Shown here piece by piece: positions 1,070 to 57,384 of a DNA stretch of 64,000 bases (within the stretch, counting starts at the first letter, position 1; each line of letters opens with the position of its first letter). The notes below the pieces were generated by a model. That model worked only from the letters and a program-made list of their open reading frames with translations. It did no database searches and was not told where the DNA came from. The translations under genes and the position numbers were made by a program. Origin of the DNA: Zancudomyces culisetae HAW-14-8 (lineage: Eukaryota > Fungi > Kickxellomycota); NCBI GenBank assembly GCA_052426225.1, contig JBNJNM010000021.1, positions 2,480,001 to 2,544,000 on the forward strand, in the 5' to 3' direction.

Positions 1070-4000
1070 TTAGCTGATTGTCTGTACTATTACACTTTGC
1101 GCAAACAGAACTGTCGAGACTGTAGTAGATAATGTGCCTATTTTTCACGAATGTTAGTCTTGTTAATATTTTAGCTCATTTTACCATTTTAATTTAAATG
1201 TCTTCCAACAACACCTGTGTTTACTGATATATCAAGTAAAAAAAACATTAGTGGTTCTATATATTACCTGTAACCGTGGCAATTAATATCGCTGATAGCT
1301 CGGTGCTATTTTTCGTACAAGTCGTGGTCATCTGTGTTGTCATCACTGTGTTGGTCATTGTATTAGTTGCTGTGTAGCTGGTTACTGTAGATGTAAACTT
1401 GACACTGGATATCGACACTGATACTGAGGTGAGAGTTGTGGTTTCCACCACTGTTTGAGTTGTTGTAGATGTTTCTGTTGGTATTTCATCAGTGATTTCG
1501 TTACCTACAATTGAATCATTACTACTTGTACATGTGAACACAAAATTTGTTGATATTACTGTAGATGTAATAAAAGTAGTTGGTGCTTTGACAGAAAGTA
1601 TATCTGTAATTATAGTTATTGGAGCTGGTGGCTGGATAGTTACAGGCGGTCTCTGCGTGATTATATTATTTACCACATAGCTCACCTGTGGCTGCAATTG
1701 AGGAACGGTTTGTACCTGTGTTGGAAGAGCCACAGGAAACGTTCCAGAATTGGCTGCCTGCGCTATAACAGGCGAAATCGTTTGCGTTATCAGTACTGGT
1801 GTTAGAGTCTGCGTTACCAGTACTGGTGTCAGCGATTGTGTCAAATACATAGGCGTAATCGTTTGCGTCAACAAGATTGGTATAACAGGAAGTGGTCCAT
1901 TTTGTTGTTGTATATTCTGTACAGTATTCTGGTTAACAACTTGAATTACAGGTTGTACAGTAATAGGCTGCACTGCAGGTTGTACGGTAATAGGCTCTAC
2001 AGGAATAGGCTGTACAGAAATGGGCTGTAAAAGTGGGTCGAGACTGGCACCTTGGGTGTTTTCTTGATTTATTACTTGTGTTGGTCCGAGTCCTGCAGGG
2101 AAAGTCTGGTATACTTGAGATTTTATCGATATGAAATTGGTAACTGTTACAAGAGGAGGTGGTTGTGGTTGTGGTTGTGGTTGTGGCTGTGGCTGTGGCT
2201 GTGGCTGTGGTTGCGGTTGTGGCTGTGGTTGTAGTTGTGGTTGTGGCTGTGGTTGCGGTTGTGGTTGTGGCTGTGGTTGCGGTTGTGGTTGTGGCTGTGG
2301 TTGCGGTTGTGGCTGTGGTTGTACTACTGTAAATATCGGCGTTTGTATAGCACCACTGAATGGCATGCTTTGTTGATACATAGGCAGTTGTGTTTGTACA
2401 AAAACACTCTCCGGAAGTTCCAAACTCTGTGCTGCTGACGTATTTCCCACCACAACGATTGTACTGGTGATCTGGGATGGTTGGTTAGCAGTTGCCACAT
2501 TTACGGCATAACCATTTGCATAGTTTACACGCTTTTCCAAATTTCCTTCCTGTGGAAATGCCATATTCCTACCACCCGTTAATGCCTCGCCAATTCGCAA
2601 TGCCCTATTATTGAGCTTGTTTACCTGAAATCCACAATAAACCGCCCCGTTTTCAGAGTCAAAACAAACTGTGTTGTCGCCGCATGTGAATCGCACCACC
2701 ACCTTGTTCACACACTGTGTGTAGCCCCCAGTAACTCCAGCCTGCTCACATTTGAACTTTCCCTCATTAGTGCATGACTCTGGTAATACTTGATCTCTAT
2801 CACTCTTTTTTTGGCTGAGAACACTTTTTTCATCAGCACTCCCATTTACCTGCTGTTGTAAATCTGTTTCCCTATCCCCCTTTTTTGCGCAGCTAATGTC
2901 TTTTCCTCTTTGATAGCATGCATTATCTTCGCCACAACTATACACAATGGCTTTGCTGTCCACGCACTGTACATAAAATTGCGCCCTCCCATCCGCTTCA
3001 ATACAAGAATATCGCTTTTCTCCGCTGCAAACATCGCTACTTACTTTGATTACAGAATTTTCCCCATTGCTTATATCCTTGGTATTCTTTGAGACGCTAG
3101 TTATACTCTGATTAGTATCCTGTGCCTTACCAAGGCTAGTATTCTGCGATGCTGTCGTGTCCCTGACATCCCTTACCTCTACAGTTTTGGTAGTAACAAT
3201 TGCGTTTTGACCAACTTGTGATTGGGGCCCACCACCATCAACAATACCTAGAAAGCTGTTTGGTGAGATCTTATCACTAAACATAATGTCTTGACATGTT
3301 GCTTTTCCACCTCTATAGTAGCACCTTTGGTTTGTCAGACAATATGCGTACTCAATTTTATTATTTTTGCACGTATAATATGTTCTATCCAAGCCATCTT
3401 CGTACAAACACCTGTTTGCATCCTCATCTGTCACATTACATTCAATTCCAGGTAATTTTACAGCTCTGGTTACGTTTGATTTGTCATTTCTCTTTGCAAT
3501 CCTCACTCTCATATCCTTTCCATCACCACTAAGACCATATAGTCTATCCAAGTAGCTGCTGTTTTCAGGAACTAACCCCACTTTTGGCTTGCATTTTACT
3601 TCACCTGTTGTACCATCACAATAATACCCACCAGGACACATGTTCAATGTTTTTTTATTATTCTCGCATTGAATATAATACTTTGACTCGACCCCTATCT
3701 CAAGGCATTTTTCATCTTTGCTCTTCATGCAGTATGCTGGGTTCAAGTTAGTTTCAAGGCCTCCACTCTTCACAATATTGGTTAAAGTATTTGATTCAAT
3801 CGAAACACTTTCTATACACTTTATACTTCCATCCGTATTTTCGCACTGTTGATTTTTAGAACAAGAAAAGTACTCTTTTACATTATCCAAACACAAGTAA
3901 TACATACTTTTATTATTGGCACCATCTACACACCCCCCTGAATTTGCACAATATTCTTTGGCACTTTTACCTGCATTTATTTCCTGTTTTATACCACTTT

Positions 4001-4106
4001 TATTGTATTCCTCTAAAAAATCATCTATAATTCCTCCAGATACTGTAACACTCCCACTTGCTAATATTAAAACCTTTAATTTTTTTAGTATCCTTTGTAT
4101 TTTCAT
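1070..4106 (-). CDS. Secreted protein with Cys-rich (CBM19/chitin-binding-like) repeats, a PQ tract and a Thr/Val-rich C-terminus; exons 4106-1268 and 1137-1070
   Basis: 949-aa ORF with a hydrophobic N-terminus and about 6 repeats of type C..YYxCxNN..xxxC.xxxxC...C. Donor AG|GTAATA at 1267, branch ACTAAC and acceptor TAG at 1138 give an in-frame last exon (GTLSTTVSTVLFAQSVIVQTIS*). The CBM19 label is from Cys spacing only. Confidence 0.7.
2158..2322 (-). repeat. Hexanucleotide coding repeat (CARCCN)n encoding about 27 Pro-Gln dipeptides
   Basis: ggttgt/ggctgt/ggttgc tandem array on the + strand. Confidence 0.95.
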
Positions 4107-6830
4107 CTTGTTTTTATATATCCTATGTTACATTCAAGTCAAAATTTAGACTCTCGTTTTAATTCCGCTCTATACTAACGTATTCTAATATAATTTCGTT
4201 AGTTTTTTTAGTAGCACTCTACTCAACATATTCGATCTATTATGTGATCAAAAAATATAAACTCTAAGAATTTATATATACAGCTTGTATTTTAAATTCT
4301 GCTTCGATGTAATACTATAGCTTCCTACAAATATATGATTCAAAAATTGCTCTTGTATTAGTAAGAGTACGTTGAGAATTAATACTAATTAATGGAAATA
4401 GGAAAGCAGTTGAGTGTAGCTAGTCTAAGTATCTAGTTTTTATTCTTTCTGCATCAGCCATCTGACACTAATTACTAAAAAATAACGAGTATCGGTTTAC
4501 TATATATTCGTCACTTGTCACTTGTCTCTCGCCACTCGACTATTTATTTTTTGGATGCTTTTCTTGTAATGGAAAAATATAACAAAAACAGACGACGTCA
4601 CTACTGATATTTTCCTATTTGACGCTTTTGAAATTTCAAACAAGGTGCTAGACTGTTCATCATCTCCGAAAACGGAATATCACAAAGCACCGCCTGGCAG
4701 TTTATTACCTTTACGAGCCAATGCACTATTTTTAATTTAATTTAATCTTTATTTGGTTTTGTTGACTGCAAGTAAATCGCAAGTACATAAACCACAATGT
4801 AGATACAAACTTATGACGCGTTACACTTCTAAACATTGGTTCGGACTTAGATATATGGCTCGCAACCATACATATTCCTTCCTCCCTTTGCTAGCTTCAT
4901 CTCGCTACAGCACTTTTATTAATTTTTTTTTTTGGTTGGAGGCTTTTTTATTCTTTCAACTCTATGTAGATATTAAATCGGTTATTCAGTCCACAAAATG
5001 ATCTGTAAGCACCTTATTATTCACAATCTAGCCCTTTCTTTACGTATGTCAACTCAAAACTAACAAACGCTAGACCTATAGAATCACCTTAGTATTGTGT
5101 TTTTATGCTCGTATCAAAGTAATGCAAGTTTGATACAGAAAGTTAAAATAATGACCAATTTAAAGAACGCGGAAGCACAATTATGATTTGCCTTTCAGTA
5201 TCCAAATCTAAGCCAAGGGTATACATATTGTGTTGTTTACAATTGGAATGGGGTAAATATATCAATATTGTCTATTGTTAAAAAACTTTGCCCGTAAAGC
5301 CAGACTACCTAGGACTATATTACAAATTTACCAACAAGAGTGAAAGCACCCTTTCTAAACTTGTAAAATTGTTGCAATATAATTGATCATGTTTACCCAT
5401 CACTCCTACTGTGAATTTTTACCAATTGCAGGGCATTTGCCTCGCAGTTTAGTAAGTATACTATGACGCTGTTTTTTTGTTGGATGTAGACCGCCAACTA
5501 GACAATCAACACATGTATCTACTCATTTGTGTTGAGGATGGTTTTCATTACTTCAAACGCAGTAGAGTATTTCTGGTGTATATAACCTTTTTTCACTCCT
5601 CCCCTTGTACTCGAACTAGATACGATAGGGATGTTTCATGTATATACAGAATAACAGAACAGAATGTGCGGCTCAGCTATACACTCGCTGTTTCTATAAA
5701 GACCATTGGAGTACAAAACCTTAATATAATACCCTAGTGTGGTGGTGGTGGGGGTGGATATTGCTATTATAGAATACAAGCACACTCTTTTTTGATGGAA
5801 GACACACTGTAGAAATATAAAAAACAAGATATATCCTCCTCAACCAACGCATCCCTTGTAAATTTTTGGTATTTGGTATTTGGAAATACTGTACTTTCTA
5901 ATTCTCAGCCTAAAAGATGGAATTACTTGAAAATTATGAGCCTCACATTAAAAAATAGCCCTACATCTCCCCTCTCACCTGTAAAACAAACACTTTATTT
6001 TTCCATGTGCTATTGCCGGCATCACGTCCATTTTTTTGCCTTCATATTATGTAGACCCACAATATCCGCTTGTCAAAATAAGTGATTTCCCCACATCTTC
6101 TACCTCGTGTCTAAAATGAAAATTGCATTTAATTGAGTATAGGCGAAATTAACAGATATTGACTTTGTATTAGAATTTATTTTTTGGCTGTGCAATTCTT
6201 GTGAGAAAATAAAGTATCGTCGCATTTGAGTATACGTAAAAGACAAACATATGTAGATTGGGGAAGGGCGGGAAGAGGGAGTATTTGACTGAGTTGGGTG
6301 ATGCAATTGAGCAAGACCAAATACCACATGCCTTTTAGTACATTGAGGACAGGTGTCAAAAAGTTAAAGCAATGAGTTGTGGTGTTCTTTGCTCACCGTG
6401 GTTTAAAACAACTGGCTTTAGGGTTGTGTTGGCCTAAATTCCAAAAGTTCCAAGCAAAAAGTCTATTAGCTTAAAAGTAAATAATTATTAAAAAGAAAAG
6501 AAAAAGAAAAATAAATGAAAAGGCTTGGCGAATTAATGGCATCTTTGCGATTTATTGGAAAACTTGGTGCTAAAAATTGGTGAGTTATGCAGGTGTGTAA
6601 CTTGTAACCCCAGAAATCGGGTCTATGTTTAGACGTAATTTATTGTCTCATTCTAATTACAGTATTCCCTAAAATACAGTGCTTTTTTTCTTCTCAACTA
6701 TTTCGAGATACTCTCTGGTCATCATTTAATACAATGAGGCATACAGAATCTGAAAACATGAAATAAGTAATATCAGTAACAGCCTGACAGCAACACATTT
6801 ATTTCAATATAAAAGCAAGAAAAAGACATA

Positions 6831-36298: not shown

Positions 36299-37221
36299 CT
36301 ACAAAATTGAGCAACCTCTCTTCTTTTTGGTCTTTGAAAGTAAAGCAGCGCGAGTAGCAGCCTCAAAAACTTCACGAACACCATCATTGGTTTTTGCTGA
36401 ACACTCGAGGTATTTAAAGGCACCAATTTTTTGTGCAACGGACATGCCCTATGATACAAATATGTTGTTAATGTATATTTCGTTTTAACAGATGGCTTCG
36501 AATATCGTAAATTATACAGAAACATACCTCTTCTGTAGTTACTGGATGCAATCCATTGCGTCTAAGATCCTCGATTGTGCGTGGGTCGTTACGTAAATCT
36601 TTTTTGCAGCCCACCAGGATTATTGGGAGACCAGCACAGAAATGTAGCACCTCCGCAATCCACTATTTATACAAATGATACGTGTACATTCGTTATTTCT
36701 GCCCACATATGGGTGCGCATGTGTGTATGCGAGTTCATGTGTGTTCATTAGTGAATTATAACAGAAATATACTTGGGCTAGAAAATAGTACATACCTTCT
36801 CTTGTACGTTATCTAAAGAATCTGGCGAATCTATTGAAAAACATATAAGAATGACATGGGAGTCGGGGTATGAAAGAGGGCGTAGACGATCGTAATCTTC
36901 CTGTCCTGCTGTGTCCCACAGTGTCAATTCAACATGACGGCCATCAGCCTCGACATCTGCAACATAGTTTTCGAATACTGTTGGAACATATACCTATTTT
37001 TTCAAAAAATTCTCGCCGTTTTTAGATTAGAGATACTTTTACCCAATTTTTAAATCATTAATATGCCGGAAGTTCGAATTTTAATACAAACAAATTAAAA
37101 AAACAACAATAAATCGATTTACCTCAGGGAATGTACCATTTGAAAACACAATCAAGAGACACGTTTTTCCACAAGCACCATCACCCACAATTACTAGCTT
37201 TCGACGAATTTCTGCGGCCAT
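36299..37221 (-). CDS. RHO1: Rho1 small GTPase (4 coding exons)
   Basis: [53 protein letters not shown], polybasic tail plus CAAX (KKKRGCSIL*). Confidence 0.98.
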
Positions 37222-37542
37222 CTATTTCAGTAATTATAACGTCAGCAACTATTTCCTTAAGCCCTTGTTCGTAGTTCTAAACGAATGTAAAAAAAAATAT
37301 TAAGAAAAGAATATCTGCTCTGCCCCCGCGGGTATTGTTGTCAAATATTCAGTCTTAGCAAAATGTAGAATTAAAGTCTGAAATTCAGAACCAGCCAAGA
37401 AAAAAATTGTTTAAAGAGTCAAACTCAGCAAAGTTGTGGATTAATTTTAGACTGTTGGATTTAATGTAGAATCAGTAATGACTAGCGATAAGGTCACCAC
37501 AGCAAAAATAAAATGTTTCAGGAATGTGTAATCCGGACTTAC
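37222..37542 (-). other. Probable 5'-UTR intron of RHO1 ending immediately before the ATG
   Basis: AG|GTAAGT donor at 37542, GCTGAC branch-like site, acceptor AAATAG|ATG. Confidence 0.6.
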
Positions 37543-39284: not shown

Positions 39285-42157
39285 CTAAAAGTTAAGTTCT
39301 TTGTCAATTTGCAAAAATTGCCATGTCCAATCAGAGTTATATAAGATGGGACGTAGGTCAGAACAGTTATCCCCAGAGGAGTTTAATCCAGAGTGAAAAA
39401 TGGGGGTGGAGACAGCGGATTTGTGGCGATTGATTGAGTAGTAATGGAAAAAGGTTTTAACTTTGACAGCAATATCGTATGGAGAATAATCATGGGACCA
39501 GAGATTACACAATTTTTTAAACAAAAAATAAGGACCCAGTCTGAAGAGAGTGCGAAGGCGGGTATACATAAATAAATCGTCATAAGACATGCCCATTTCT
39601 ACCTCATCGCATTGAACAAAGGGTGTGTGGGTGGGAACAAGCTCAGCAGAGGGTGTTGAGTCCAAAAACAGATTAAGTACGCTTAGCTGATAATACTTGC
39701 ATGAAAAGGCAATAAAGTTACGTAGCTCCATTTTGCTGTAAGAACCAATGGGGTTCAGATCGCCGCTGCTATTATCATACTTGGTTAAATAACCACGGAC
39801 AATCTCGTCAGAGTTTGCTGTACTAAGTGTGAGAAGCAGTTTTTTTCTTCCGCGAACCCAAAGTATCAATGACGCTACAAAATAAGAAAGTACCATTCGA
39901 ATACGTGCCTGAATGTTTTGCAAAGCAAGGTTTTCTGTAACCGAGCCGCCGTGTGCTGTGAATTTGGGCGTTTTATTCATAATCATCACAAACAGTGCCA
40001 GTACGGTTGTGATTACCTGATCAATCCCAAAGTCCATGTGGTAACTATCAATAAATGTTATGAAAAAGTATATAAGTAACTGGGTATTGGCAATACGTAT
40101 TCAACAAAAATATTTACCACCCAACTTCGGCAGCCACCATACATGCTCTATTCCTGCTCTGGGTAGTTGAATTTTCCGTACTCATATACGCTGTATGTAT
40201 TAAATAGCTATTTTTAATACATTATTATACACTTTTTAAAACAACATCATTTAAAAAACACCCTCATTTCTAGTTAAAGCGTTGACAAAGGTGATTGAAT
40301 AGGGATCAAATCAAATAAATCAAATAAATTTATGCTATAGTTACTTTGATATCTCTCTTGGGCTTTCAGGAAAATAGGCATCATTCCCTATTATCTCTCT
40401 AAGGTCTCCCAACACGGCTTCGTCTATCAGAAATATACTCATGTTGTAGTCACACTTTATTTAAATCCCTGGCACGGCATTACGAAAAAAAATCATAAGT
40501 TTGCACATCTTGTCATAGAATTACACTTACCTCCATCTTTTATCGCATTGTAAACCAATCTGCACATGGAGTACGTCATCATCAAAACAGAACAGCTATC
40601 TATTCCTCCGCTAAGTGCTATAAAATACCCTCCTTGTCTGCTGCGCCTCAAATAGTCCCACATCCAACATGCCGAGGCCAAGTTCATTTCCTCCTCCGCC
40701 GTTAAAAACACCACTTGAATAGGGTCTGTACATGGATCATACGATTGTTTTATGTTGAATTTTACCCGAACCTTTGGATATTCTAAATCACCTTGGTTTT
40801 CAGGGGGTACACTCGAAAAGTTATCTTTAATTATCGTGCGTTGTGATCTGTATGAGGTCACTTCATTCAAGTCTAGGTTTGCAACAACAACTTCATACTC
40901 ACTTAATGAAAATTGCTTTCCTATTGCCATCACCTCACCATTATACACTACCATTGGGGCACCATCAAAATAAGTATTTCCTGAGCTACACCCTCTCTGA
41001 TTCGAATATAGATATGCTCCTCCAAACTATTTTTTGTTTGGTATTCCTCTTTATTACTGCTATACATATATACTCGGTTGATAGTATATTTAAAATATAA
41101 TAATGACGACTTACGCATGTGGTAATTTGAACTATACTATTAACTCTTTTTTCGAGCTTTCCGATTTCATGATAGTTCCCACTAGCATTTACAATTATCT
41201 CTGCACCATTTATATACATCTCACTGTGTGGACTTCGAGGTGCATTCATTTCCTCTCCAATTTCAATTCCAATTGTTGTATCATTAAGCTCTAGCAATGC
41301 ATCTCCTATTACCGTTTCCTTCTGCCCTTTAACACTTTTTATAGTATCTGGTAGTGTATAATTCTCCACTTTCATGTTGTCCGCCCATGTTGAAAACCAT
41401 CTAGGATGTTCTGATCTTCCCTCTACTGAAAGCCATTTTTTTGGCCTAATCAGTAAAATCTCACCATTCATCATTACCGTTACTCCTGAATACCGATGTC
41501 CTTTAAATAAAACCGGCCTATAGTTTTTTTCAAGGGTTGTGAGTAAGAGTTTTAATACTGCATTTTTCCATTATTATCATTATTGTTTACTATTTTTCGT
41601 TATTATCATCACGAATAACAAAATAATAAATCTGTACTATTGTAAAAACATACATTCCGAGAAATATCAGAATCCCGTACAGCTCTGTATCACCTAAAAG
41701 TTTGGCTACAATCTCCCATGAGTGAGTGTATGTGTCAACTATATTTGTTTTGAAATTATTGTCAGTCTTTCAAATTAGTTAAAGTTTTTAAAATAACTCT
41801 GGTTTCGTCTGGGTACTTACTTTCATAAAAATGATCTCTACAGCCATATCCACTATTTCATTACATATTTTACAGGATTTTGGTAGGATGTTGTTTAAAA
41901 AACAGAAAAAAAGTAGATGCTCTCTCGTATCGGTGGTATCCATATTATTTCTGTAGCATGTCGACGCTTTTCAACTACAAAAATAAAAGAATCATCAATG
42001 TCAACACTTACGTTACTTCAAGCTCCGAACCAAGTCTAATTTTAGCATTTCTAGCCTTAGCATCGATTATACTCCTTCGAATCCTTTCATAATTTCCGTC
42101 GAAATCAAGGACCCATTGATTCAAGCAACAGGCTGAGACCAGGCTCCCCAATTCCAT
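39285..42157 (-). CDS. QNS1: Two-domain NAD+ synthetase (QNS1/NADSYN1 family), 8 exons, with a degenerate glutaminase active site
   Basis: [85 protein letters not shown]. All seven introns are GT-AG and phase-consistent. Confidence 0.95.
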
Positions 42158-44497
42158 GCTCAGCTATTTTCCCTCTTTTTTTTTAGTACACCTTCAAAAG
42201 TTATGAAAAACGTTATTTGAGAAAGCCTTAAAATACAGAATATTTTTTTTCCAAATGTATTTATCTACTACTTGCTAAACCTAAATAGTTCTTGTGGAAT
42301 GTGGATATAGTTTATGCTTATAAACCAAAAATAGAAAGAAAAAAAATATTTCGCTCAAGTAATGCAGCATCAGAATAACGACAATACTTGCTCGTTTTTT
42401 GACGAACTCGTGCCATAATTTCTTCTTGTTTTTTGTTTTGAATCAATTAATCGAGAATTTTAAATCCTAGCCTTGCCGAATCGGCGTAATCCCAATAACT
42501 TATTTGAGATTGGCAGGATTATAAAATCGCATTCCTATTTGCTTGTATCTAAAGCATAAAGCTTGTTTGTTGTCCAATTATATATTAATACAAAGGGCAG
42601 ACAATTAACTGTAGAAATAACAATTAAATCCCCCTTCACCTCAATTATTTCAATCTGGCTTTAGCACATAGTAGTTTTTTTTTTGTATTTAGTGTCGAGC
42701 TAGAGATCACCAAGCTAACAGAAATTCATTTACATTACTACTCGAATGTTATTTCTTTTTACTAAGTTAGCTGGTAAACACTACACAAAAAGTGTAAAAA
42801 AAGTAACAATCATATAATCAATATTTCTTTATCCCCTTCCAGATATTACATATCTATTCACTTTGATTCAGCGAGACACTTTTAACTCCAGGTTGACCCC
42901 ATATGACCATAAAGTTGAATTAAATTACCTGGTATAATTATTGAAGTGTTTTTAAATACTTGTAGCCACGGTTTGGCTAAAATGTGTCTCAAAAGAAATG
43001 CAATCCATTTCAGCACTTGGCTACGTGCCCAGATCATACTTTAGTGACGAGCGTGTGATAAGTGACCCGTTTTATACCACCTAGGCCTCTAGAGGAATTG
43101 AAACACTTGATCCACCATTCGGAACAAAGGGATGTGTGCTGGTGTTTGAAAAAGGCAAAAAACAAAGACAAGCACACCCCCCCAATTTGTGCTCGACAAC
43201 ATTTCTGATGATGGGTGTTCTTTTTCTTAGCTAATTTTTTTCCGTTACTGCGAAAAACACATCAAATGGGTAGGTTAGGAACACCAAAAGGTGACTTTGT
43301 GATTTTGACAATATGAAGATTTAATAACGTAACACCAGCTATACATTATTAAACCATTCAATTTTAATACATGTGCTAGGAATATGACTTTTCTGGCATT
43401 TACAATAACTACGACAAACAGCGTTTATTCTGCTGACCACTTGTGTGTGTTTACACAACTTTTCAAATCAATTCATACATGCTGTTTTTGTTTTGCTTTG
43501 GTTTTCCTGGTTTTGGAAAACTTGGCTGAACACTTGGTGTAAATATAGTATTTTATTAGTTAAAGTATATCCAACTCTGTTTATCTGTGCACTTAATATT
43601 GTTACATAAAACTAAAAACTTCTGCATCAATGAAAGAATTATAAATGAGAAAGTACTATTTAACTGAAAAGTTACAGAAACTGTAATTCGAGATGCTTTA
43701 TCATTAGGCATTGCATCTTTTTAAATTTGCGGACCATAACAATCAGTTATGTATCAATAATAGTTTATACAAAGGGCTAAATGTATAAATATGCATATGA
43801 GATACAATACCTTTTGTGTTCGGTGAACTAGTGTAGTTCAAAATGCTTTATCCTAAAAAGAAATAGTATGCGCACACTTTCTATTATCACTCATTCTTTT
43901 TGGACCGAACAAATATGTAGGATACCTGGATGTTACTATGATTTGATAGAGCAAACACGTGAGTGTAAGGTCTGGGGCTATTTTGCCATTTCCCCTCCCT
44001 AATAAAGGCTAAACACCGATTTTGTTTGAGCGAAGTTTGATTCTAGCCAATAAAAGCAAAGCTCTGCGAGCTTTTGCAGCTAAAAAAGTTTAGCCAATGT
44101 CTGTGGTTGTTTATTTGTTAAAAAAACTTCCTAGGTCAAATAAAATCTCTTGGAATTACCAGCTTTAAAATGCTTTTGGCCACGAAGGATGGTAAATGGG
44201 CATTAAAAAAAGCTGTACTTTGAAGAGTGTTGTTTAAACAAATAGTCGTCACACCAAAAGCCGATTCTAATACTGATATTGTCTCAATAATCTATACACA
44301 TATGTTTATTTATTGACAAAGAATACTCGAGTGTTGCAAAAAGTGTAAACGAAAAGTTCGATATTGAGAATTTCAATTTAAAACCGACCCCAACTTATCC
44401 ACCGCTAAAATTGGAAAGAGAAAACACAAAAGCATAAGGGTAAACAGTATATACAACAAAAAAAGAAGAAATAATAGAAGATATTCAATAAGAAAAA

Positions 44498-46335
44498 ATG
44501 GCAGAAACAATCCAGCAACAACTACAGCAGTTGGTTTTGCTTCCTGAGACTCAATCGACAAGCTCAAGCGCTGCAGCAGTGGAGGGTTGGCACGCAGGGG
44601 GTTTTGGAGCAAATAAGGGGCATAATGACGAAATAATGGAGCAATTGGGACCGATAATTCTATCCGTATATCGAGCAAAGAAAGAGGAACTTTTTAAAAA
44701 GCAAGTGGAGATTTTTGTGGCTAAAAAAGATGCGGAAATTATGAAGCTATGTGGTGATCATCACAAGCAATTTGCAGTGGCTTTGGAACAGCTATTAAAA
44801 ATTAAACAAAACACATCGACTTTGCGAGAAAAAATAGTGGAGTTAAATACTGATCTTCAGAATTCGGGTAAGGATCTGGTATCAACGAAGAAAGAACTGC
44901 TAGTGCTGAAAAATAAGCATCGAAATGTTGAACTAGCTTTAGCAGCAACCAAAAAATGTACCGAGGTTTTCCATATGGTGGCAAATTTTGAGCAACAGGT
45001 TCAAAATAAAACATACTACGAGGCAATTAAAACGTTGGAGGATCTGCAACAAGCTTATATTCAAAAAGTCAAAAATTACAAGATTGGAAGGGTTTTATGT
45101 AAGTTTTATGAATGTGCATGGTGCTACTATCGATACTAGTATTTGTGTTAGAGGATAATGGCCACGTGTATTGATATTGATGTGGTAGATCTAATAAGTT
45201 TGCTCAAAATACATTTAAATATAGCTGATTCATTTGGGGTAATGAGTGCTGAGCTAAAGGATGCGGCTCTGAGTGATATGCGAGAGTGGCTGTATGGGCT
45301 TAAAAAAACAATGAGGCAAATTGGTGCACAGTATGACGACCGAATGAATAGGAAACAGTTAAACTGGGTTGGCAGGATCAAAGGGGATAAAGATAAGTAT
45401 GTTAGCCCGGCAGTTCATTTTGTATTAGACGAAGAATTTGAAGGTAATATCATTGTATTTTTTTGTATTTTTTCTTTTTTGGTATTGTATTTATGTTTTT
45501 AAAAATAAATTTCAGCGAGGGGGGGAGTTAGAGTTAGAGTTGGAATTGGAGTGGGTATGGGGAGGGAGGAAGAGAGATGGGGATGAGGAAATAACTAGAA
45601 ACTTCAAGGAAAATCACGAAAAAAAATAATCATCATAGTTCTTAATAAATATTATGTGTATCAAAATATAGAACCCGAGCAATCAAAAATAGATCTTAAG
45701 CCATTATATCTGTGCCTTTATGTTCACATAAAGCTTGGATACAAGGCTGAATTTGTAAAGAGCTACTCGAAAGATCGCAAGGCACAAATTGACTTGATTA
45801 TGAATTCGACAGGAAACGTAGTTACGCAAGACTTGACTTCATTTGATAATTTGATATATGATGTTATTGGGTTTTTTATAATTGAGAACAATGTAGTAAC
45901 ATCATCACCAGATTTCAGAGCCAAAACAGATGTATGTTACTACTTACTCTATATATGTGTGTGCTATATAATGATTAACTCATCTTGAATGTGGCGTGGA
46001 TCTGATACATTAACCATACAATGTACCACATAGGTTGATTTACTTTGGGACTCTGTAGTGAACAGTTTTTCGACCATCATTGCCAAAAACATCCAGGCGA
46101 TATTATCAAACGAAAAAACTGCATCTTCAATTAAAAAAAAGCTGGAAACATTCACCTTTGTAATGGAGGTAAGGGTCATTTGACTTGTGTTTGAAATTAA
46201 ATGTGTTTGCGTTTATTATACTAGAAGTCAGCCAGAGTAACGATATATTTGTACTTAAAAATCATATAAATATAGGAATATTCATACGACGTGCAGAAAC
46301 TTCGAGAGCTTATTGTTGCCATTTTCAACACATAA
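44498..46335 (+). CDS. SEC15: Exocyst subunit Sec15/EXOC6, N-terminal half only (about 424 aa); exons 44498-45098, 45225-45443, about 45672-45931, 46034-46168, 46276-46335
   Basis: EQLGPII, KDAEIMKLCGDHHKQF, YYEAIKTLEDLQ, MREWL, IDLKPLYLCLYVH..LG, YSKDRKAQ, IGFFIIE, VDLLWD. Ends FNT-TAA. Confidence 0.85.
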
Positions 46336-47034
46336 CGTTTACTTGAGCGATAATGTTTTGCCTCATTTATTTACATTTTATTAAGTTTTCATACGTTTTT
46401 CTTTGGTAAATGTTTTTGTAGGGTGGTGCTATGCCTATTTATTTTCTAAAATATGATAAAATAATGGAATATTTTGTGATTTTATTGGGTTTCCTCCGCC
46501 TAAGTTCCAAGTTGGTCTGTTTTTTTTGTGCTCTCTAATTTTAATTAAAGATTACTCTGTTTCGAGTGTATGGTGGCAGCACCTCTATTTAAAAAACTAG
46601 GTATGGAATAAGCTAAAAGGGGCGTCACGTCTTTATACTGTTTTTGTTACTGTTGCACTCAAAAAAGCAGACTTTCAAGGCTAATGCTCAAAAGAAATGG
46701 ATATTTTATCATGGTGAAAGGAAAAAGTGCATAATAATGTAGTAAGGTTTATTTACCATTTTTTTTAATACTCTTTTTTTCTATACTTTCCTGTTGACCA
46801 ATTAACAATGCAGCCACACTAAGCTCGAATTAATATTCGCCTCTCCCAATAACCCACAATTAATTTTCGAAAACCGAAAATAAGCTTTTAGAATAAGCGA
46901 AAATTCACAGTCAACTTAAAAAAAGCCTCAGCCGTTTACTAAGATTAGCGCATTTTTATAACAATATTGAAGATACCTTGATTTCATTGAAAGAATAATA
47001 TTGAAAAAACCAAAAGAACGTTAATATAGACAGA

Positions 47035-48339
47035 ATGGCACTGAATCGCCCACTAAATGACGAAGAAGTCTACAGCGAAATGCGAAAAATGGTCGCTTTC
47101 ATTAGGCAGGAAGCGCTGGAGAAAGCCAGAGAGATTAAAGCAAAGGTGAGTACCATTACGAGTTTCATAGGGCCTGGAATTATCTTATGCATTTTTTATA
47201 TATAATAATTCATTATTAGCTTATAAGTAGAATAAAAAATTATGCCTAAATTTTGAAACTAAAATCTTGATAAAATAGGCTGACGAAGAATTTAACATTG
47301 AAAAGGTAGGGTATAAATATTGAAAAGAAGAAAGTCGGTTCAAGAAGGGGGGGGGGATCAAGTGTGTGATTTTAATCGAAAAGTTTTTTGACAAAAAAAA
47401 TTATTCATGTATTTTGTAGGCTAAAATAGTAAGACAGGAATCGGTAGCGTTAGATAGGAACTACGAGCGAAAAATGAAGCTGGTGGAGACACAGAAGCGC
47501 ATAACCATGTCCAATATGATTAACAAGAGCCGGATTCAAGTGTTACTGAAGCGTCAGCAACTCCTCGATGATTTACTGAGTGATTTTGAAAAGAAATTCG
47601 TGGAATTGAGGGCAGACTCCGAGCAATACGAAAAGCTGATGGTGACTTTGCTTTATCAGGTAGGTTTTTACTTGTGTGTTTTTTATTATTAAATTGTCTG
47701 GGCTAGAGGGGAGGTGGTGGCAATTTTATCTTATTTAATTACTTTTCAAGAAAGAAAAAAGCGTTTGGATTGGTGTAGTGGAGCTGTAGAATGCTAGTGG
47801 GTGTGCGGAGAGTTTAGGTTAATATGTATGTAGTTTATGTGGTTCAAAAGAATACACAGTTTTGATTTAGTTATGCATAAAACCATGTCTATTTAAAACA
47901 AAATAGTGCTTCCAGAAGATGTACGAGAAAAATGTGATTATTTATATTGTTGAAGACGATAAAACGATAATTGAGAAGGTCATAAAAGATGCGGTAGAGA
48001 AGTTCAAGAACGATACCGGAGTAGAGGTGAATGCCAAAGTGGATGACAAAAAGTATCTCTTAAAGAACAGGTACGTATTATGACAGTATACGTTTTTATT
48101 TATTTTGAGTTATGTATATGTATGTGTGTATATTGATGGGAGTATATGGCATACTAACTTATGGAATGGCGGAATGGATAATATATAGATATGGTGGAGT
48201 CTTGGTATCAACGCCGGATGATCGTATCAAAGTAGATAATACATTATCCGAGCGCTTACATATAAGCTTTAAGGAGACATTGCCGCAGATAAGGGTTACA
48301 TTGTTTGGGCACTCACCCAACCGTAAATTTTTCAGTTAG
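47035..48339 (+). CDS. VMA4: V-type ATPase subunit E (5 exons)
   Basis: KMVAFIRQEALEKAREIKAK|ADEEFNIEK|AKIVRQE...GGV...IKVDNTLSERL...LPQIRVTLFGHSPNRKF. Confidence 0.97.
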
Positions 48340-49027
48340 TTACATTTGTCTTTAATTGCTTGGTCTGGATTAAATAAAAAAGTAGTTTTTGATTAAACTA
48401 AGGCAGTTGGTGTGGTTAGGCGGGGGTGAAGTGAGGTGGGAAAAAGAATATAAATGTGTATCATGATGCTATTGGAATGCGTGGATTGAAGAGGGTGGTT
48501 TGGGTTGTGTTGAAGGGGTAGGGGGGTGGGGTGGATTTATTTGAGTGGTTTGGTAAAAGAGAATGGTATAATCTAGACTACTTTGGTGTTTGTGGTTTAT
48601 TCGAGCCTTTTCAAGGTTAAAACATTAAAGAATGGCAAGAGAAAAGTCAAGTGAACAAAAAAAAAAGAATACAAGGAGTGAGTGAGTATTTGATGGTGGG
48701 CGATTGGAAATGTGTTGGCACAAGTAAATGCCAATGAAAGGAACACAAAAATTCCAAAAATCTCAAAAATTATATATAAAAAAAAGTAGCAAATAGTAGG
48801 CCAGAAACAGAGGAGAGAAGGGAGGGATTGAAAAAATGATGTTTACCTTTTAGAAAATGAACAAATGGATCTTGGGGTATTTGTAGCTTGGTTTGAAAAA
48901 CAGTTTTCAACATTAAAGCTATAAAAAAAAACGGTTGATAGTACTATATAAACTTTAAAAGGAGGAGAAGATTTCGAAAGAATAAAAGTACAAACAAGGA
49001 TTAAAGATTAATACAAAACAAACAAAG

Positions 49028-51694
49028 ATGCAAAGAGCAGTGGTAAAGGGAGTGCTATCAGGCGATTCTATTGTGGTGCGCTCAGTGGTAGCACGCGAAA
49101 ATCCAGCACAGCCACCAGCAGAGAAAGTCTTTGGGTTGGCATATGTCCAGGTTCCACGACTGGGGTCCGGCAGAAAGGTGGAGGACGACGAGCCCTTTTC
49201 AGTGGAGGCACGAGAGCTGATGCGAAAAATGCTTGTGGGTGTGGTGGTACGGATGGAGGTCAAATACAGTACAAACAGTGGGCGCGAGTATGGAAGAGTA
49301 TTTGTCGAACAAGGAATGGTGGATGTCACCAAAGCGTTGGTGGAGAAAGGGTATGCAAAGGTGAGTGAACAAGCCAGGAGTCGAATAAGCAGGAGTAGTG
49401 GTGGGGGAGATGCTGAAGAGGCAGAGAACGAGTATGTAAAGGAATTGATCAAGATTGAGGCAGAGGCAGAGCGGAAAAAAGAAGGTTTATGGAACGAAAA
49501 GGGCAGATATATCAAACGAGAGATTGGAATAGAAGGAAAAGAAGAAGAATATTTAAAGAAGAATAAGGGGGCAGAAAAGGAGGCGGTGATTGAACAGGTA
49601 CGAGATGGGTCAACATTACGCGTAAATTTAAAAGACGGATACAAATGGCACCTTGTAACGCTGCAGATATCTGGAATTAAGGCACCTGTGGTTCGAGTCA
49701 ACATTCCCGGGCAGACAGATTTGGTGGAGGAGTACGGAGAGGAAGCCAAGGCATTTGTGGATTTGCGGCTGCATCAACGTGATATAAAAGTGGTTCTTGA
49801 GGGCAAGACAGCAGGGGGTAATGGAGTGTTTATAGGCAGTGTGTACCACCCCGCAGGAAATATCGCAGAGGTACTTGTTGCAAGTGGGCTTGCAAAGGTG
49901 GTTGACTGGACAGCGGCAATGGTGACAGGTGGGCCACAGCGGCTGCGTGAGGCTGAACGGGGAGCAAAAAAAAATAAGCGGCGGTTATGGAAGAACTATG
50001 ATGGTCCTGCAGAAGGTGAAGGTACAGCGAACAAGTTTGAGGGAGTAGTGACACGAATAGTGAGTGGTGATACAATCGAAGTGGCTGATGCTGCAGGAAA
50101 GGAGCGAGAGGTTCAATTGGCATCGCTGCGACAGCCAAAGGCATCCGAAGCCAAGACAGCTGGGTATGCAAACGAGGCAAAGGAATACCTACGCAAAAAG
50201 CTGATTGGACAGAAGGTTGAGGTGCGGATTGACTACGCTAAGCCGGCTACTGAGGGATTCAGAGCACGTGAGTGTGCAACAGTTATCCGTGAAGGTCGCA
50301 ATGTCGCTGCATTGTTGCTTAGACGAGGGCTTGGACATGTGATTCGTCACCGCCAGGACGACGAACAGCGATCAAGTGCATACGACGAACTGATGGCGGC
50401 CGAAATGGAGGGTATCGAAAAAAAACAGGGGATACATTCGGGTAAGGAGATGGCAGCCAAAGAACTGCGCGACTCCTCCGAATCAGCGGCACGAGCCAAA
50501 GCAGTCCTGCCACATCTGAAGCGCGGTGGTAAGATTTCAGGAGTGGTAGAGTATGTGTCACAGGGGTCGCGAATGAAGATAGTGCTGCCCAAGGAGCTGA
50601 CCAAAATTACATTTGTCGTGGCAGGAATCAGATGTCCACGAGTTACCAAGGATAAGGACAGCGAGCCGTTTGGTGATGATGCTTTGTTGTTCACACGACG
50701 TCGAGTGATGCAGCGAGACGTTGAAATTGAAATAGAAGCAGTAGACAACACTGGTGCATTTATTGGTATGTTGACATATAATAAAAATAAGAATCTGGGC
50801 ATAGAGCTTTTAGAGGCAGGATTGGCTACTATTCATGAGTACAGCGCGGATGCTTTGAAAAACTCCAATCTTTATTATACAGCAGAAAAAAAGGCTCAGG
50901 CTGCCAAAAGAGGACTATGGAAAACCCAAGTTTCTAACCAACAGGAACAACAACAGCAACAACAGCAACAACAATCACAACAACAGCACAAGTCCCAGCC
51001 AGTCAAAGTTATGGTTTCGGAAGTCGTGTCAGCTGACAATTTCTATGTCCAAATCATCAAGTCGGATTCTACTGTATCTGATCTTGAAGCTCTAATGCAG
51101 AAGCTAACTATAACTCCTCCTTCCGCCACCTCTGCTTCTCAAAAGGCCTTCAAACAAAACGACTTGGTCATCGCAAAATTCCCCTCTGATGACACTTGCT
51201 ACCGCGCTCGCATCAAAAAGGTCATTCCTTCCTCCAAAAATCTTCCTCTGTACGAGTGCCAAGCCATCGACTATGGTCATTGCGAAACTACTTCCATCAT
51301 AGCTGCTTTGCCCCAAAACCTCAACACTTTGCCACCACAGGCTGTTGAAGCCCACCTCTCCTTTGTAAAATCCGCTGTTTCTGATTACAAGGACGATGCC
51401 ACCTCATACTTGATCTCCTTCCTAAACAAGAACTCTGTTATCAACGCCTCTCTAGACCTTTCGCTTCCTACCTCTGTCTATCTAACCTTGTTTAGTTCCC
51501 CAACATCATCATCCCTCTCGTCAAGTTTCAACGCTGCTTTGCTTTCTGCTGGATATGCCGTTGTTGATAATTCTAGTCCTGTCTCCAAACGCAACCCCTC
51601 TGCCATTTCCTCCTTATCACCCCTTGTTGATGCCGCGAGAAAGGCTAGACGTGGTATGTGGGAGTATGGTGATGTCATGCCTGATGATTTCTAA
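49028..51694 (+). CDS. SND1: Tudor staphylococcal nuclease (Tudor-SN/p100)
   Basis: Four SN repeats (VKGVLSGDS, VRDGST, IVSGDT, VEYVSQGSR), a Tudor domain, SN5 and the terminal RRGMWEYGD. Confidence 0.97.
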   Translation: MQRAVVKGVLSGDSIVVRSVVARENPAQPPAEKVFGLAYVQVPRLGSGRKVEDDEPFSVEARELMRKMLVGVVVRMEVKYSTNSGREYGRVFVEQGMVDVTKALVEKGYAKVSEQARSRISRSSGGGDAEEAENEYVKELIKIEAEAERKKEGLWNEKGRYIKREIGIEGKEEEYLKKNKGAEKEAVIEQVRDGSTLRVNLKDGYKWHLVTLQISGIKAPVVRVNIPGQTDLVEEYGEEAKAFVDLRLHQRDIKVVLEGKTAGGNGVFIGSVYHPAGNIAEVLVASGLAKVVDWTAAMVTGGPQRLREAERGAKKNKRRLWKNYDGPAEGEGTANKFEGVVTRIVSGDTIEVADAAGKEREVQLASLRQPKASEAKTAGYANEAKEYLRKKLIGQKVEVRIDYAKPATEGFRARECATVIREGRNVAALLLRRGLGHVIRHRQDDEQRSSAYDELMAAEMEGIEKKQGIHSGKEMAAKELRDSSESAARAKAVLPHLKRGGKISGVVEYVSQGSRMKIVLPKELTKITFVVAGIRCPRVTKDKDSEPFGDDALLFTRRRVMQRDVEIEIEAVDNTGAFIGMLTYNKNKNLGIELLEAGLATIHEYSADALKNSNLYYTAEKKAQAAKRGLWKTQVSNQQEQQQQQQQQQSQQQHKSQPVKVMVSEVVSADNFYVQIIKSDSTVSDLEALMQKLTITPPSATSASQKAFKQNDLVIAKFPSDDTCYRARIKKVIPSSKNLPLYECQAIDYGHCETTSIIAALPQNLNTLPPQAVEAHLSFVKSAVSDYKDDATSYLISFLNKNSVINASLDLSLPTSVYLTLFSSPTSSSLSSSFNAALLSAGYAVVDNSSPVSKRNPSAISSLSPLVDAARKARRGMWEYGDVMPDDF

Positions 51695-53780: not shown

Positions 53781-56056
53781 TTAAATCAAAATATCACCCA
53801 AAATCGAAGAGACATTATCTGACAACCCTTTATCTTTTAGTTTATCATTTATTATTGCTTTTATATACTCAACTTGCACTTGCTTTGGTTGTTCTACCTT
53901 TCCTATCCCCCTAGTGCCATCATCACTATTACTATTACTACCACCGTCATCACGTGTATGTGATACATCCTCTGTGTTGACCCTTATCGAAATAACGTTA
54001 CTTGTCTTTGTCACTACAACAGTTGTAGGACTTGCTGGACCCTGGCTCTCACCAGTATCATTAATACTCTTGGCCAAAGCTCGTTGAACATTACTGCCAT
54101 CATCATCATTGCTACTATTGCTATCAGCGGCTATACCCATTCGTGTCTTTCCTATGTTATGCATAATGCTGCTCAGCAAACTGTTATTTGCTTTTAGTAG
54201 GTCCACCACATTGCTTGTAGTGCTCTTTTTGTGTAGTGTCGAAGAGAGTACAACTGCTCGCGATGTTTTTGTTGGTATTACCTTTGTAGTTGTTTTGGTG
54301 GTTATTTTTGTACTTTTATTAATATTGGCTGCACGCATAGATGCCTGCACCACGCTTACGTGCGTACTAGTAAAGAGCGTGAACTCACTTATCATTTTTG
54401 TAAGCGTTATGGATTGAATAACAGGAAGTGCTACGCTTCTGGGCGTTGCCTGTGTGGATTTATTGGTGGTTTTCTTACTGGTAGTTTTTTTTGTCGAGCC
54501 ACTTGTTTTGGATGTTATACTTAGAGCTCTAGACGTTACGTTGGTGTCAGTAGTATCATTAGTGTCAGTAGTATTAGTGGCCTCGGCAGAGGTAGTATCT
54601 GTTGCTTCCAAATTTGGCACAGTGGTGGTTGAAAGTATTGGTTCGCTGACCAGCTCTGCACTAAGCCCAAGCACAAAGGAGCACGAGTTTATTGTGCTAA
54701 TAACTGTGCTAGTGAAATCAACGGTGGTGGTTGTTTCCCCGAGCACGGTTACATATTCAACATTTGGCTCTGATTTTGATTCGCTGGTTGACTCGCTGGC
54801 TGATTCTCCATTTGATTCTTCGGTTGACTCGCTATTTGATTCTCCATTTGATTCTTCAGTTGACTCGCTATTTGATTCTCCATTTGATTCACTGGTTGTA
54901 TCTGTAGCCAATTGATCTATTTAATTGATTATTTTATGTAAAGTTAGCTCTGGAATACTACCAGCACATTCACCACTCTTTTTCTAAGCCATACATTTTA
55001 ATAAAAACCTCAGCTACATTTAAGATGTAAAACAATACAAATGTAAGAGTAAATTTTACCTGACGATTCTGAAGAAAGCTGGCGGTTTTTGGAGTTGTTA
55101 CTCTTGGATAAAGACAGACTTCGATCACCATCTCTACCTCCCCTTTCTGAACCCACAAACACTTGACCTGAATCAGCACCCACTCGCTTTTGCACAAAAT
55201 CAGTATACATACCAAGCCTTGAATAGTAGGCAGCACCAGCCTGCGATTTGCAGTTGGGCTTTGATGAATGCTCTGGGTTGTCACCAAATGCTGAAATTCC
55301 CAGCAAAATATATTTTCCATCGCTATCCTTTGTCACCAGCAATGCACCAGCGTCATTATAGCACGAGTTTCCGGCGTCGGGATAAATCTTTGTACAATAG
55401 TTATCCGATATAGTGCTGTTCTTCTTAGGCCCGGTTATCTCTATCGCGCTGTTTATGTTGCGCTGACAGAACTCTCGGCTTTGCAATTTGGTACCTTTAA
55501 CCACCAATTCAGGTGATGCTACAGGGTTTGCAAGCGTGTTGATATTTTCCCATCCCAAAAGAAGTACCTCGTTTGACGTATCATTTGTACCGTTTGCGTA
55601 TATCCTGAGACTTTCAGTATCGCCATCAAAATCAAGCTTTTTTTCGAGCTTGAGTAATGCTATGTTGTTTGGTGGGTATAGACTTTGATCATTAAAGTTG
55701 GGATATGGCAGGACTTGTGACACTTTTACGTATTGTTGTTTTCTCCTATCAGTACTTCCTACACCTACTCTGAAATTTCTTGGTTTAGTCTTGTACTCAC
55801 CATACTCTACGCATATGGCTGATGTGATAATCCACTGAGGATCAATTATTGCTGCTGCACAGGTTCTAAATTGAGAGCCATCAAGTGAAAGTACCGAGGC
55901 TGCAAATGGAAACTCTCGCTTATTTGCGTTTCTTCCTAGTATTACTCTGTTTACTTTACTTTGCTTGGAATTAAATGTTGTTTTGCTCGGTTGGTATGTA
56001 TAGCATGCTATAATTCTAGCGTATATTAGAGCGAATATTGTAGCTTTAATTTTCAT
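53781..56056 (-). CDS. Secreted trypsin-fold (S1) pseudo-protease with a Ser/Thr-rich C-terminal region (about 710 aa); exons 56056-55060 and 54916-53781
   Basis: Signal peptide, RVILG, EFPFAAS, CAAAIIDPQWIITSAIC, NNIALLKL, LLGW, SCYNDAGA, LLGISAFG, YYSRL. Phase-1 intron 55059-54917. Confidence 0.88.
54775..54892 (-). repeat. About 3 copies of a 36-nt coding repeat (ESNGESNSESTE)
   Basis: gattctccatttgattc occurs three times at 36-nt spacing. Confidence 0.85.
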
Positions 56057-57384
56057 CTTTTTATCATTTACTCTTATTTTTTATCATGCTCCTTTATTGT
56101 TTACGCTTTTTGCCTTTTGCTTTTTGCTTTATTATGGCATAAACAATATTTCAGTTACAAACTTGATAATATATTAACAAAAAAAAAACTCCTAAAAAAA
56201 AGGAAAAGTAAAATTTAGACCTGTGTGCCTGGTTTTTATGGTATATTTTATCAGGTTTATCCGTCGTGGTATGTTATTATAATGCTATAATATCGTGTTA
56301 TTGTTGCTTTAGCTACTCGATTTTAGTATTAACAGGATAAAGTGTGAGGTCTTCAATAATAGGGTGAACATAGTGACTATATCAGGGTCTTTATTACTAT
56401 TCTTTTTTCTATTTTCAACATCAAATGAGAGTAATGTTCAAAGATCAAGAATATCTTTGTGTCATGTACTAGGAACGATTTGTATAGTTCCTGGATCCCT
56501 CTTCACCACTTCCCCCTTTTAGCACTTGAAATTAAAACTGTTTTCAAAAGACAAATCAAATACAATCAATCAGGTAGTTGAGCTTTTTTTTTTTTGCTTT
56601 ATTTTTTGTCATCATATAACACTTTAAGCCTAGACAGTACCAAATTGGCTAATCATCCTTTCATGTTAAAAAAAGGCACGACAAAGTGACATTTCTATTT
56701 GAAGTTCTGATGTCTTTGTTTTTCCCACAACTATCCTTGTCCGTGGTAGGAATCATAGAAAACAAAAATGAGATGATAGCACGCTTTCTCAAAATCTATT
56801 GGTTGAATATATTAAATTCATAATAAGCCTGGACAAAATCAGGAGTACTCTACAATTTTTATATACAGCAACAAAATCTGAGTATTGCAAATAAGCACAA
56901 CTATCGGTGTGTATGTGTGTGGGGGAGGTGGGGGGAGGGGGGATGAAAAAAACAAAAAAACAAATGGAGATTGGTGCAAAGAATGCAAACTTCAATAGGC
57001 ATCCAGTTTATCTGGACTAATCAAGCAGCGCCATTCTCGTAATCCAGAACGTCAAGTCTGAATGAGTAGTATTTTTCATTTAACACTAACGCTATACAGC
57101 TACCTATGTCCAAAGTGCACCGGTATTGTTTTTATCCAACATACCAATATTATTCTTCTTCACTTATTCTCGACATTGTAAAATAAAAAAAACTGTGTAC
57201 ATTGTTTGGAGACGGATATGGACAATCGTTATGTTAAGGTAAAGAATTATTTTTTCACAGTAGGGCTTGTTCAATCTTTTTACTCAACTTGTAAAAAAAA
57301 GAATAATAATCCACCCTTAGTGAATAAGTGAAGACACAAGTGCAAAAAGGAACATTTAGGAATCTTGTTTGCTTTTTTTTTTTC

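Follow-up and report, generated by a model that had tools for sequence, protein, structure and literature searches.

Yeast Qns1 and human NADSYN1 adenylate nicotinic acid adenine dinucleotide (NaAD), then amidate it with ammonia, which is supplied by a glutaminase site or taken from the solvent. Both belong to the fused type F, branch II, of the nicotinamide adenine dinucleotide (NAD) synthetases, and De Ingeniis et al. 2012 (PMC3376133) describe the eukaryotic enzymes as fused glutamine users, name the extended C-terminal loop as a signature of glutamine users and mention one bacterium with both forms. The single-domain bacterial and archaeal NadE (type N) uses free ammonia as donor and has no glutaminase domain at all. 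In this work we have analysed a gene with the layout and length of Qns1 and NADSYN1 in a stretch of 64,000 nucleotides from the fungus Zancudomyces culisetae HAW-14-8 (contig JBNJNM010000021.1, positions 2,480,001 to 2,544,000), which is referred to at its full length as the window, and in this gene the nucleophile of the glutaminase site is replaced by glycine. On balance we favour the interpretation that it is an intact, glutaminase-dead extra paralogue, here called QNS1-B, likely amidating NaAD with free ammonia only, while a normal copy that uses glutamine probably exists elsewhere in the genome. The window protein is thus predicted to have the same donor as NadE, from which it differs by its full, dead glutaminase domain and by its eukaryotic descent.

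For the human enzyme PMC6946656 gives a kcat of 20/s and a Km of 42 mM with NH3 and 3.7/s with glutamine (its Table 1), and it places the glutaminase domains at the core of an octamer. According to PMC10866660 the loss of human Cys175 is pathogenic; the C175Y variant has nearly lost its glutamine activity and keeps an ammonia activity near that of the wild type, and D587N and A573T are without activity, the ammonia activity included. In a literature search that covered mostly titles and abstract openings, with subscription journals outside its scope, none of the papers listed described an NAD synthetase of a eukaryote that naturally lacks the Cys. The best analogue of the window protein might be vertebrate carbamoyl-phosphate synthetase I (CPS1), a paralogue with a retained inactive glutaminase, which uses free ammonia and stands beside a paralogue that uses glutamine; CPS1 belongs to an unrelated enzyme family, is mitochondrial and is allosterically activated. 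A Giardia CTP synthase considered as a further precedent was not confirmed from PMC9138612 and was dropped.

The gene is located on the minus strand (42157..39285) and consists of eight exons with 2091 nt of coding sequence, which give 696 amino acids without an internal stop. The gene model was built by joining exons at GT-AG signals (Table 1), and the N-terminal domain is numbered as in human NADSYN1. All seven introns, 73-159 nt in length, run from GT to AG, as the initial annotation had read them. A nitrilase-like N-terminal domain of about 275 amino acids is fused to the NAD synthetase domain: the translation of exon 8 matches PF02540 with 57.9 bits, the pieces from exons 4 and 5 alone gave no Pfam match, and all three long exons (4, 5 and 8) match the human NADSYN1 structure 6OFB. 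No second QNS1 copy was found by tblastn within the window. The public protein P0326 (window 39288-40037, minus strand) covers only the last 250 amino acids of the gene, with 100% identity, and no full-length version of the window protein appeared in the protein homologue searches. The public gene model seems to be split, and this would hide the dead glutaminase site.

The codon at 41258-41256 is GGA and places Gly175 in the motif IGIEIGEEM, which aligns to the human nucleophile motif IGSEICEELW in 6OFB. We have aligned 180 homologues of 600-800 amino acids, from which two B paralogues (described below) were set aside to leave 178 background sequences; in column 175 Cys stands in all 177 of those that have a residue there, and one further sequence has a gap. 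The Glu-Lys-Cys triad is therefore incomplete in the window protein, with E45 and K114 retained (as is E176) and C175G in place of the nucleophile, and the protein should be incapable of glutamine hydrolysis. A search of fungal genomes found another assembly of the same species, B1, which represents another strain or another haplotype; over 2402 bases its copy of the gene (locus L001) has 8 differences from the window, with GGA unchanged, which rules out a base-call error. An altered genetic code for GGA was considered and rejected, since this codon occurs 21 times in the gene, mostly in columns with a Gly consensus, including both glycines of SGGIDS. The motif with its GGA codon, the improbability of a base-call error and the presence of the ELE glutamate (E45), the RPK lysine (K114), SGGIDS, QNIQAR and GYLTKYD, all asserted by the initial annotation, were thus confirmed.

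The damage extends well beyond the nucleophile. The residues to be scored were those that PMC6946656 names in its description of the human structure, the list being fixed beforehand, and a residue was called unusual if it is present in less than 5% of the background homologues. Among the glutaminase, YRE-loop, tunnel and coupling positions 15 of 23 are unusual in the window protein (W54R, E120, N122R, Y123S, R124E, E125H, C175G, W179N, S202N, H203Y, D238G, R239N, L240T, C531N and R668C), compared with 0/10 at the ligand positions of the synthetase site, where the PP-loop SGGxDS, the nicotinate Tyr, the P2-loop residues and NRHK are retained (Fisher p=0.0005, calculated for 15/23). E120 is rare in the homologue set, nevertheless it is the human residue, and discounting it leaves 14/23; accordingly the changes RYS and VEGRSEH noted earlier are present, but E120 within VEGRSEH does not count as a loss. 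Seven of the substitutions (N122R, Y123S, R124E, E125H, S202N, R239N and R668C) occur in none of the 177-178 homologues with which they were compared, and the tunnel loop in exon 5 carries D236S, G237S, D238G, R239N and L240T. Neither the YRE loop with its second glutamate E125 nor the tunnel constriction residues are conserved. The canonical Harpellales copies have 0/23 and 1/23 unusual positions, and in the extended C-terminal loop, present at full length, 7/20 conserved columns are altered in the window protein compared with none in the canonical copies. On the synthetase side none of 14 scored motif residues is missing, and D587 and A573 are retained. The earlier claim of a dead glutaminase beside an intact synthetase site was supported and could be extended in this way to 15/23 against 0/10 residues. 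Compared with Qns1 and NADSYN1, the window protein has E45, K114, E176 and every named residue of the synthetase site in common, but it lacks the nucleophile and E125, its YRE loop, tunnel and C-terminal tail are altered, and it is an extra paralogue. The functional residues lost are those that serve glutamine use and ammonia transfer, in a protein that is fast-evolving throughout.

Furculomyces boomerangus and Smittium angustum have two genes each, of which A (P0009) is canonical and B (P0005, BB559_000170, in the former and P0124, BB558_004360, in the latter) is diverged; the A and B genes would lie close together, judging from neighbouring locus tags, and the B genes are annotated only as hypothetical or as glutamine-dependent NAD synthetase. 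These B proteins keep the E-K-C triad and E125, and have 8/23 of the scored positions altered. The window gene, whose protein is 54% identical to them, groups with B in three trees (support 98, 99 and 100/98), and a grouping with A was rejected (approximately unbiased (AU) test, p=0.004). The window protein and B have 26 rare residues in common, among them C531N, H203Y, L240T and Y660F, compared with 12 and 13 in common with the A copies. The tree puts the window organism with the Harpellales. With some caution on account of the long branch, the window gene is by these comparisons a member of a second Harpellales paralogue, QNS1-B, which arose by a duplication inside the Harpellales; its sister genes in Furculomyces and S. 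angustum stand beside a canonical A copy in their own genomes. No B copy of Smittium megazygosporum was among the matches listed, and no close relative spanning the whole query turned up in a scan of metagenomes. It was also observed that the Furculomyces B model P0005 begins with an unrelated N-terminus without E45 and has probably missed the first exon, while the S. angustum B protein P0124 is complete and 99% identical to it.

The initial annotation had raised the question of a second, canonical QNS1 in the genome, and assembly B1 answers it in part. A second QNS1-like locus lies there on another contig (C2, 25622-26139), where an intron apparently separates two segments that are 42% and 46% identical. 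However, these identities to exon 4 fit Furculomyces A (42/46), B (43/49) and a Kickxellales protein (42/49), and are therefore non-discriminating as to its canonical status; in the simplest reading the C2 locus would be the A copy, the canonical one. Since the window gene belongs to a diverged second paralogue and another QNS1-like locus exists in the same species, it is probably an extra enzyme and not the only NAD synthetase of the organism. Human C175Y and yeast C175A resemble the window protein in that the nucleophile is gone and the synthetase is intact, but those are harmful single mutations, whereas the loss in the window protein is fixed in both assemblies, is old and is accompanied by many further changes of the site.

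In the mechanism that we propose, the synthetase half would still form NaAD-adenosine monophosphate (NaAD-AMP) and take NH3 from the solvent, and the nitrilase half might be retained as a structural scaffold, since in the human octamer the core is made up of glutaminase domains. The erosion may have been stepwise, the glutamine site and the tunnel being altered first and the nucleophile being lost later in the window lineage, because the B proteins of Furculomyces and S. angustum have Cys together with altered glutamine-site and tunnel residues. The gain could be that glutamine is spared where ammonia is abundant in the larval gut. Harpellales inhabit the midgut or hindgut of larvae of aquatic insects (PMC5954228); a value of about 60 mM ammonia in the rectal lumen of Manduca is cited in PMC6911005, which also describes that mosquito larvae excrete ammonia directly via the anal papillae. 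The link to hindgut ammonia that the initial annotation drew is therefore plausible, though tentative.

Cys-less relatives were found outside the Harpellales as well. With the B protein as query, 150 matches were listed from 1.84 billion representatives; 120 of them span the nucleophile motif, and among these listed matches Cys is absent in 14/120. Synthetase intactness was scored on 14 motif residues of our own choice: seven of the 14 Cys-less proteins keep all of them, five have lost some and two are incomplete in length, compared with 52/71 Cys-bearing proteins with full cover that keep all. Ancora sagittata, Trichuris trichiura, Soboliphyme baturini and Alternaria metachromatica are Cys-less with an intact synthetase, while in the Cys-less proteins of Paraphoma and Calocera the synthetase motifs are damaged. 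Of the four named sources with an intact synthetase, three live in guts. The sister nematodes Trichuris and Soboliphyme, whose gene models look incomplete, probably represent one loss of Cys. One common origin for the Cys-less proteins was tested with 11 of them, the window protein and 10 of the 14, and was rejected (AU p=2e-10, from a quick tree with long branches). At the tunnel end (C531), Asn is present in 3/11 Cys-less and 6/84 Cys-bearing representatives covering both sites, which is a weak link.

A fused homologue pair from bacteria (L006:4001-6139 and L007:664-2826) is of the eukaryotic type and likewise without Cys, L007 also lacking the triad Glu. The ratio of nonsynonymous to synonymous substitution rates between the two, obtained by simple counting at 75% GC, is 0.43 in the glutaminase and 0.26 in the synthetase domain, as under purifying selection, and this enzyme is the only strong PF02540 match in both bins (2/2), which may be incomplete; by analogy the pair speaks for the ammonia-only reading of the window protein. 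As separate observations, two identical eukaryote-type nadE copies (L008 and L044:4001-6117) lie on one contig, separated by about 20 kb, and seem to be frameshifted in the synthetase half, which the assembly may have caused, and four long Qns1-type proteins (P0246, P0263, P0295 and P0251, from metagenome sequences and Paraphoma) have lost both glutaminase and synthetase motifs and are candidate pseudoenzymes. We put forward only tentatively that NAD synthetases that run on ammonia alone and keep a dead nitrilase domain form a real eukaryotic class, which evolved repeatedly and was favoured in gut dwellers, namely the Harpellales, the whipworm with Soboliphyme, and the gregarine Ancora.

Several points weigh against an ammonia-only QNS1-B. 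Yeast Qns1 C175A is reported to be non-functional in vivo (bioRxiv 2020.10.27.357780) and the human Km for NH3 is 42 mM, so that a high cytosolic ammonia concentration or a lower Km would be needed. A canonical copy can use NH3 too, which makes the advantage less evident. The synthetase domain has suffered too: 7/73 of its 99%-conserved columns are altered, compared with 0 and 1 in the canonical copies, and G518S beside the ATP site is seen in 1/178 homologues. Columns conserved to at least 95% are altered in 24/110 cases in the glutaminase and 19/122 in the synthetase domain (p=0.24), and no significant excess of glutaminase changes emerged across the domain (p=0.24 and p=0.20); nor do the domains show a significant difference in how severe their changes are by BLOSUM (p=0.20). 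Additionally, the terminal branch of the window protein is very long (1.6 changes per site), which fits a general relaxation, and the polymorphism test described below rests on five sites. The window protein may have only a weak activity, or a regulatory role, because by alignment its synthetase domain has lost more conserved residues than the canonical copies. The suggestion by the initial annotation of an ammonia-dependent enzyme or a regulatory subunit is supported in part: the former has a direct precedent in human C175Y (PMC10866660), but the protein proved to be a diverged paralogue, and its synthetase domain is also eroded.

The rival which survives best, although we consider it unlikely, is that the window protein is a non-catalytic or weak partner, which forms mixed oligomers with the canonical copy, binds NaAD or ATP and dampens or tunes glutamine use, or which moonlights, for example as a chaperone. 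Both domains are eroded with the fold and the ligand sites preserved, enzymes of this family form oligomers (PMC6946656), and yeast Qns1 keeps its chaperone role when catalytically dead (bioRxiv 2020.10.27.357780). Doubly dead forms do exist, since synthetase motifs are also lost in the five of 14 Cys-less representatives mentioned above. However, the 14/14 motif residues and 10/10 ligand residues that are intact in the window protein fit catalysis better than binding alone.

Slightly less probable than this is a redundant duplicate under relaxed selection, which is drifting to loss, in which the glutaminase site went first as the other copy covers it, and which has little function left. The very long branch, the statistically similar erosion of both domains and, as weak evidence, the missing S. 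megazygosporum B among the matches listed would agree with such a decay. In a neutral simulation, with random point mutation (point changes only) at 15% of the codons, which corresponds to the share of invariant columns altered (22/147), the frame of the glutaminase domain alone stayed open in 99/2000 runs, which decay could accommodate, but that of the whole gene in only 6/2000. Neither stops nor frameshifts nor broken splice sites were found in the window gene, the splice sites of 7/7 introns being intact, and the named synthetase residues are spared (0/10 altered). Invariant columns are changed at 18% in the glutaminase and 10% in the synthetase domain, and variable columns at 73% and 78%, so change tracks conservation in both domains and the dead domain is still structurally constrained. 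Over 1331 coding bases the window and B1 differ by four synonymous changes and one conservative change (I69V); the neutral probability of 4/5 synonymous differences is P=0.008, or P=0.04 with transitions only. B is, furthermore, intact in Furculomyces and S. angustum, at the 54% identity given above. Selection still appears to act on the window gene, and the neutral evolution that the initial annotation named, together with a lack of expression, as fatal to its proposal was not seen.

It is improbable that the specificity of the enzyme has changed, either to another amine through a remodelled tunnel or to another acid, for example nicotinic acid mononucleotide (NaMN), giving an NAD analogue or nicotinamide mononucleotide (NMN). 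C531N and the alterations at the constrictions Y123, H203 and L240 are found already in the Cys-bearing B, which would suggest a directional change rather than decay, and there are changes near the ATP site (G518S and V522S). On the other hand the His of the NaAD adenine site and the nicotinate-stacking Tyr, both named in PMC6946656, are kept, and Asn at C531 is found also in 5/178 background homologues besides the six Cys-bearing representatives. An error of sequencing, assembly or gene modelling as the source of the Gly codon is largely refuted and hardly credible, since the codon is the same in a second assembly that differs elsewhere, is two base changes away from TGY, lies in the middle of an exon, is accompanied by concordant changes in exons 4, 5 and 8, and encodes conserved Gly elsewhere in the gene.

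No nitrogen-related cluster was seen among the neighbouring genes of the window, which look like housekeeping genes by the labels we presume from their translations (Table 1). Two further open frames of the window were noticed. A trypsin-like one may represent a catalytically dead protease homologue, if the motifs are those we take them to be, and a frame of 956 amino acids, in which Cys-rich units recur beside a long PQ run and a tail rich in Thr, looks, from its composition, like a secreted or wall protein.

Table 1. Features of the QNS1-B gene and other genes of the window (positions in the window; substitutions in human numbering)
Feature	Position	Strand	Content	Basis
Exon 1	42012..42157	-	ATG; triad Glu45 (GSELEV) retained	frame, tblastn, alignment
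Exon 2	41821..41852	-	32 nt; Tyr51 retained	splice model, weak tblastn support from paralogue B
Exon 3	41654..41738	-	glutaminase-domain helix	splice model and tblastn
Exon 4	41115..41517	-	Lys114 retained; YRE loop altered (N122R, Y123S, R124E, E125H); C175G; Asn179; S202N; H203Y	
Nucleophile codon	41256..41258	-	GGA (Gly175) replaces the glutaminase Cys	also in assembly B1
Exon 5	40531..41026	-	tunnel loop GCDGDR -> GCSSGN; linker; PP-loop SGGIDS intact	
Exon 6	40345..40423	-	variable synthetase insert	splice signals and frame only, no tblastn match
Exon 7	40118..40207	-	synthetase segment	splice model and tblastn
Exon 8	39285..40044	-	synthetase core; P2 loop and NRHK retained; C531N, R668C; TAG stop	
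Neighbour	36468-37303	-	presumably Rho GTPase	translation
Neighbour	44492-46346	+	presumably exocyst Sec15	translation
Neighbour	47005-48339	+	presumably V-ATPase subunit E	translation
Neighbour	48986-51694	+	presumably Tudor-SN	translation
Trypsin-like open frame	55010-56080	-	TSAIC and NDAGAL at the usual places of the His and Ser motifs (as presumed)	
956-aa open frame	1257-4127	-	Cys-rich repeat protein	

If a natural, selected Cys-less enzyme is real, it would show a eukaryote that runs the amidation step on free ammonia. The canonical A copies, the eroded B copies and the dead B copy would form a natural series for how ammonia tunnels open or decay, and in the reading of a recurrent class the Harpellales B gene would have passed from duplication through remodelling of the tunnel with Cys kept to the loss of the nucleophile. 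The annotation as glutamine-dependent would be wrong for several proteins, possibly for the whipworm one too. The recurrent class, if true, would be an exception to the rule by which eukaryotes need glutamine for NAD synthesis.
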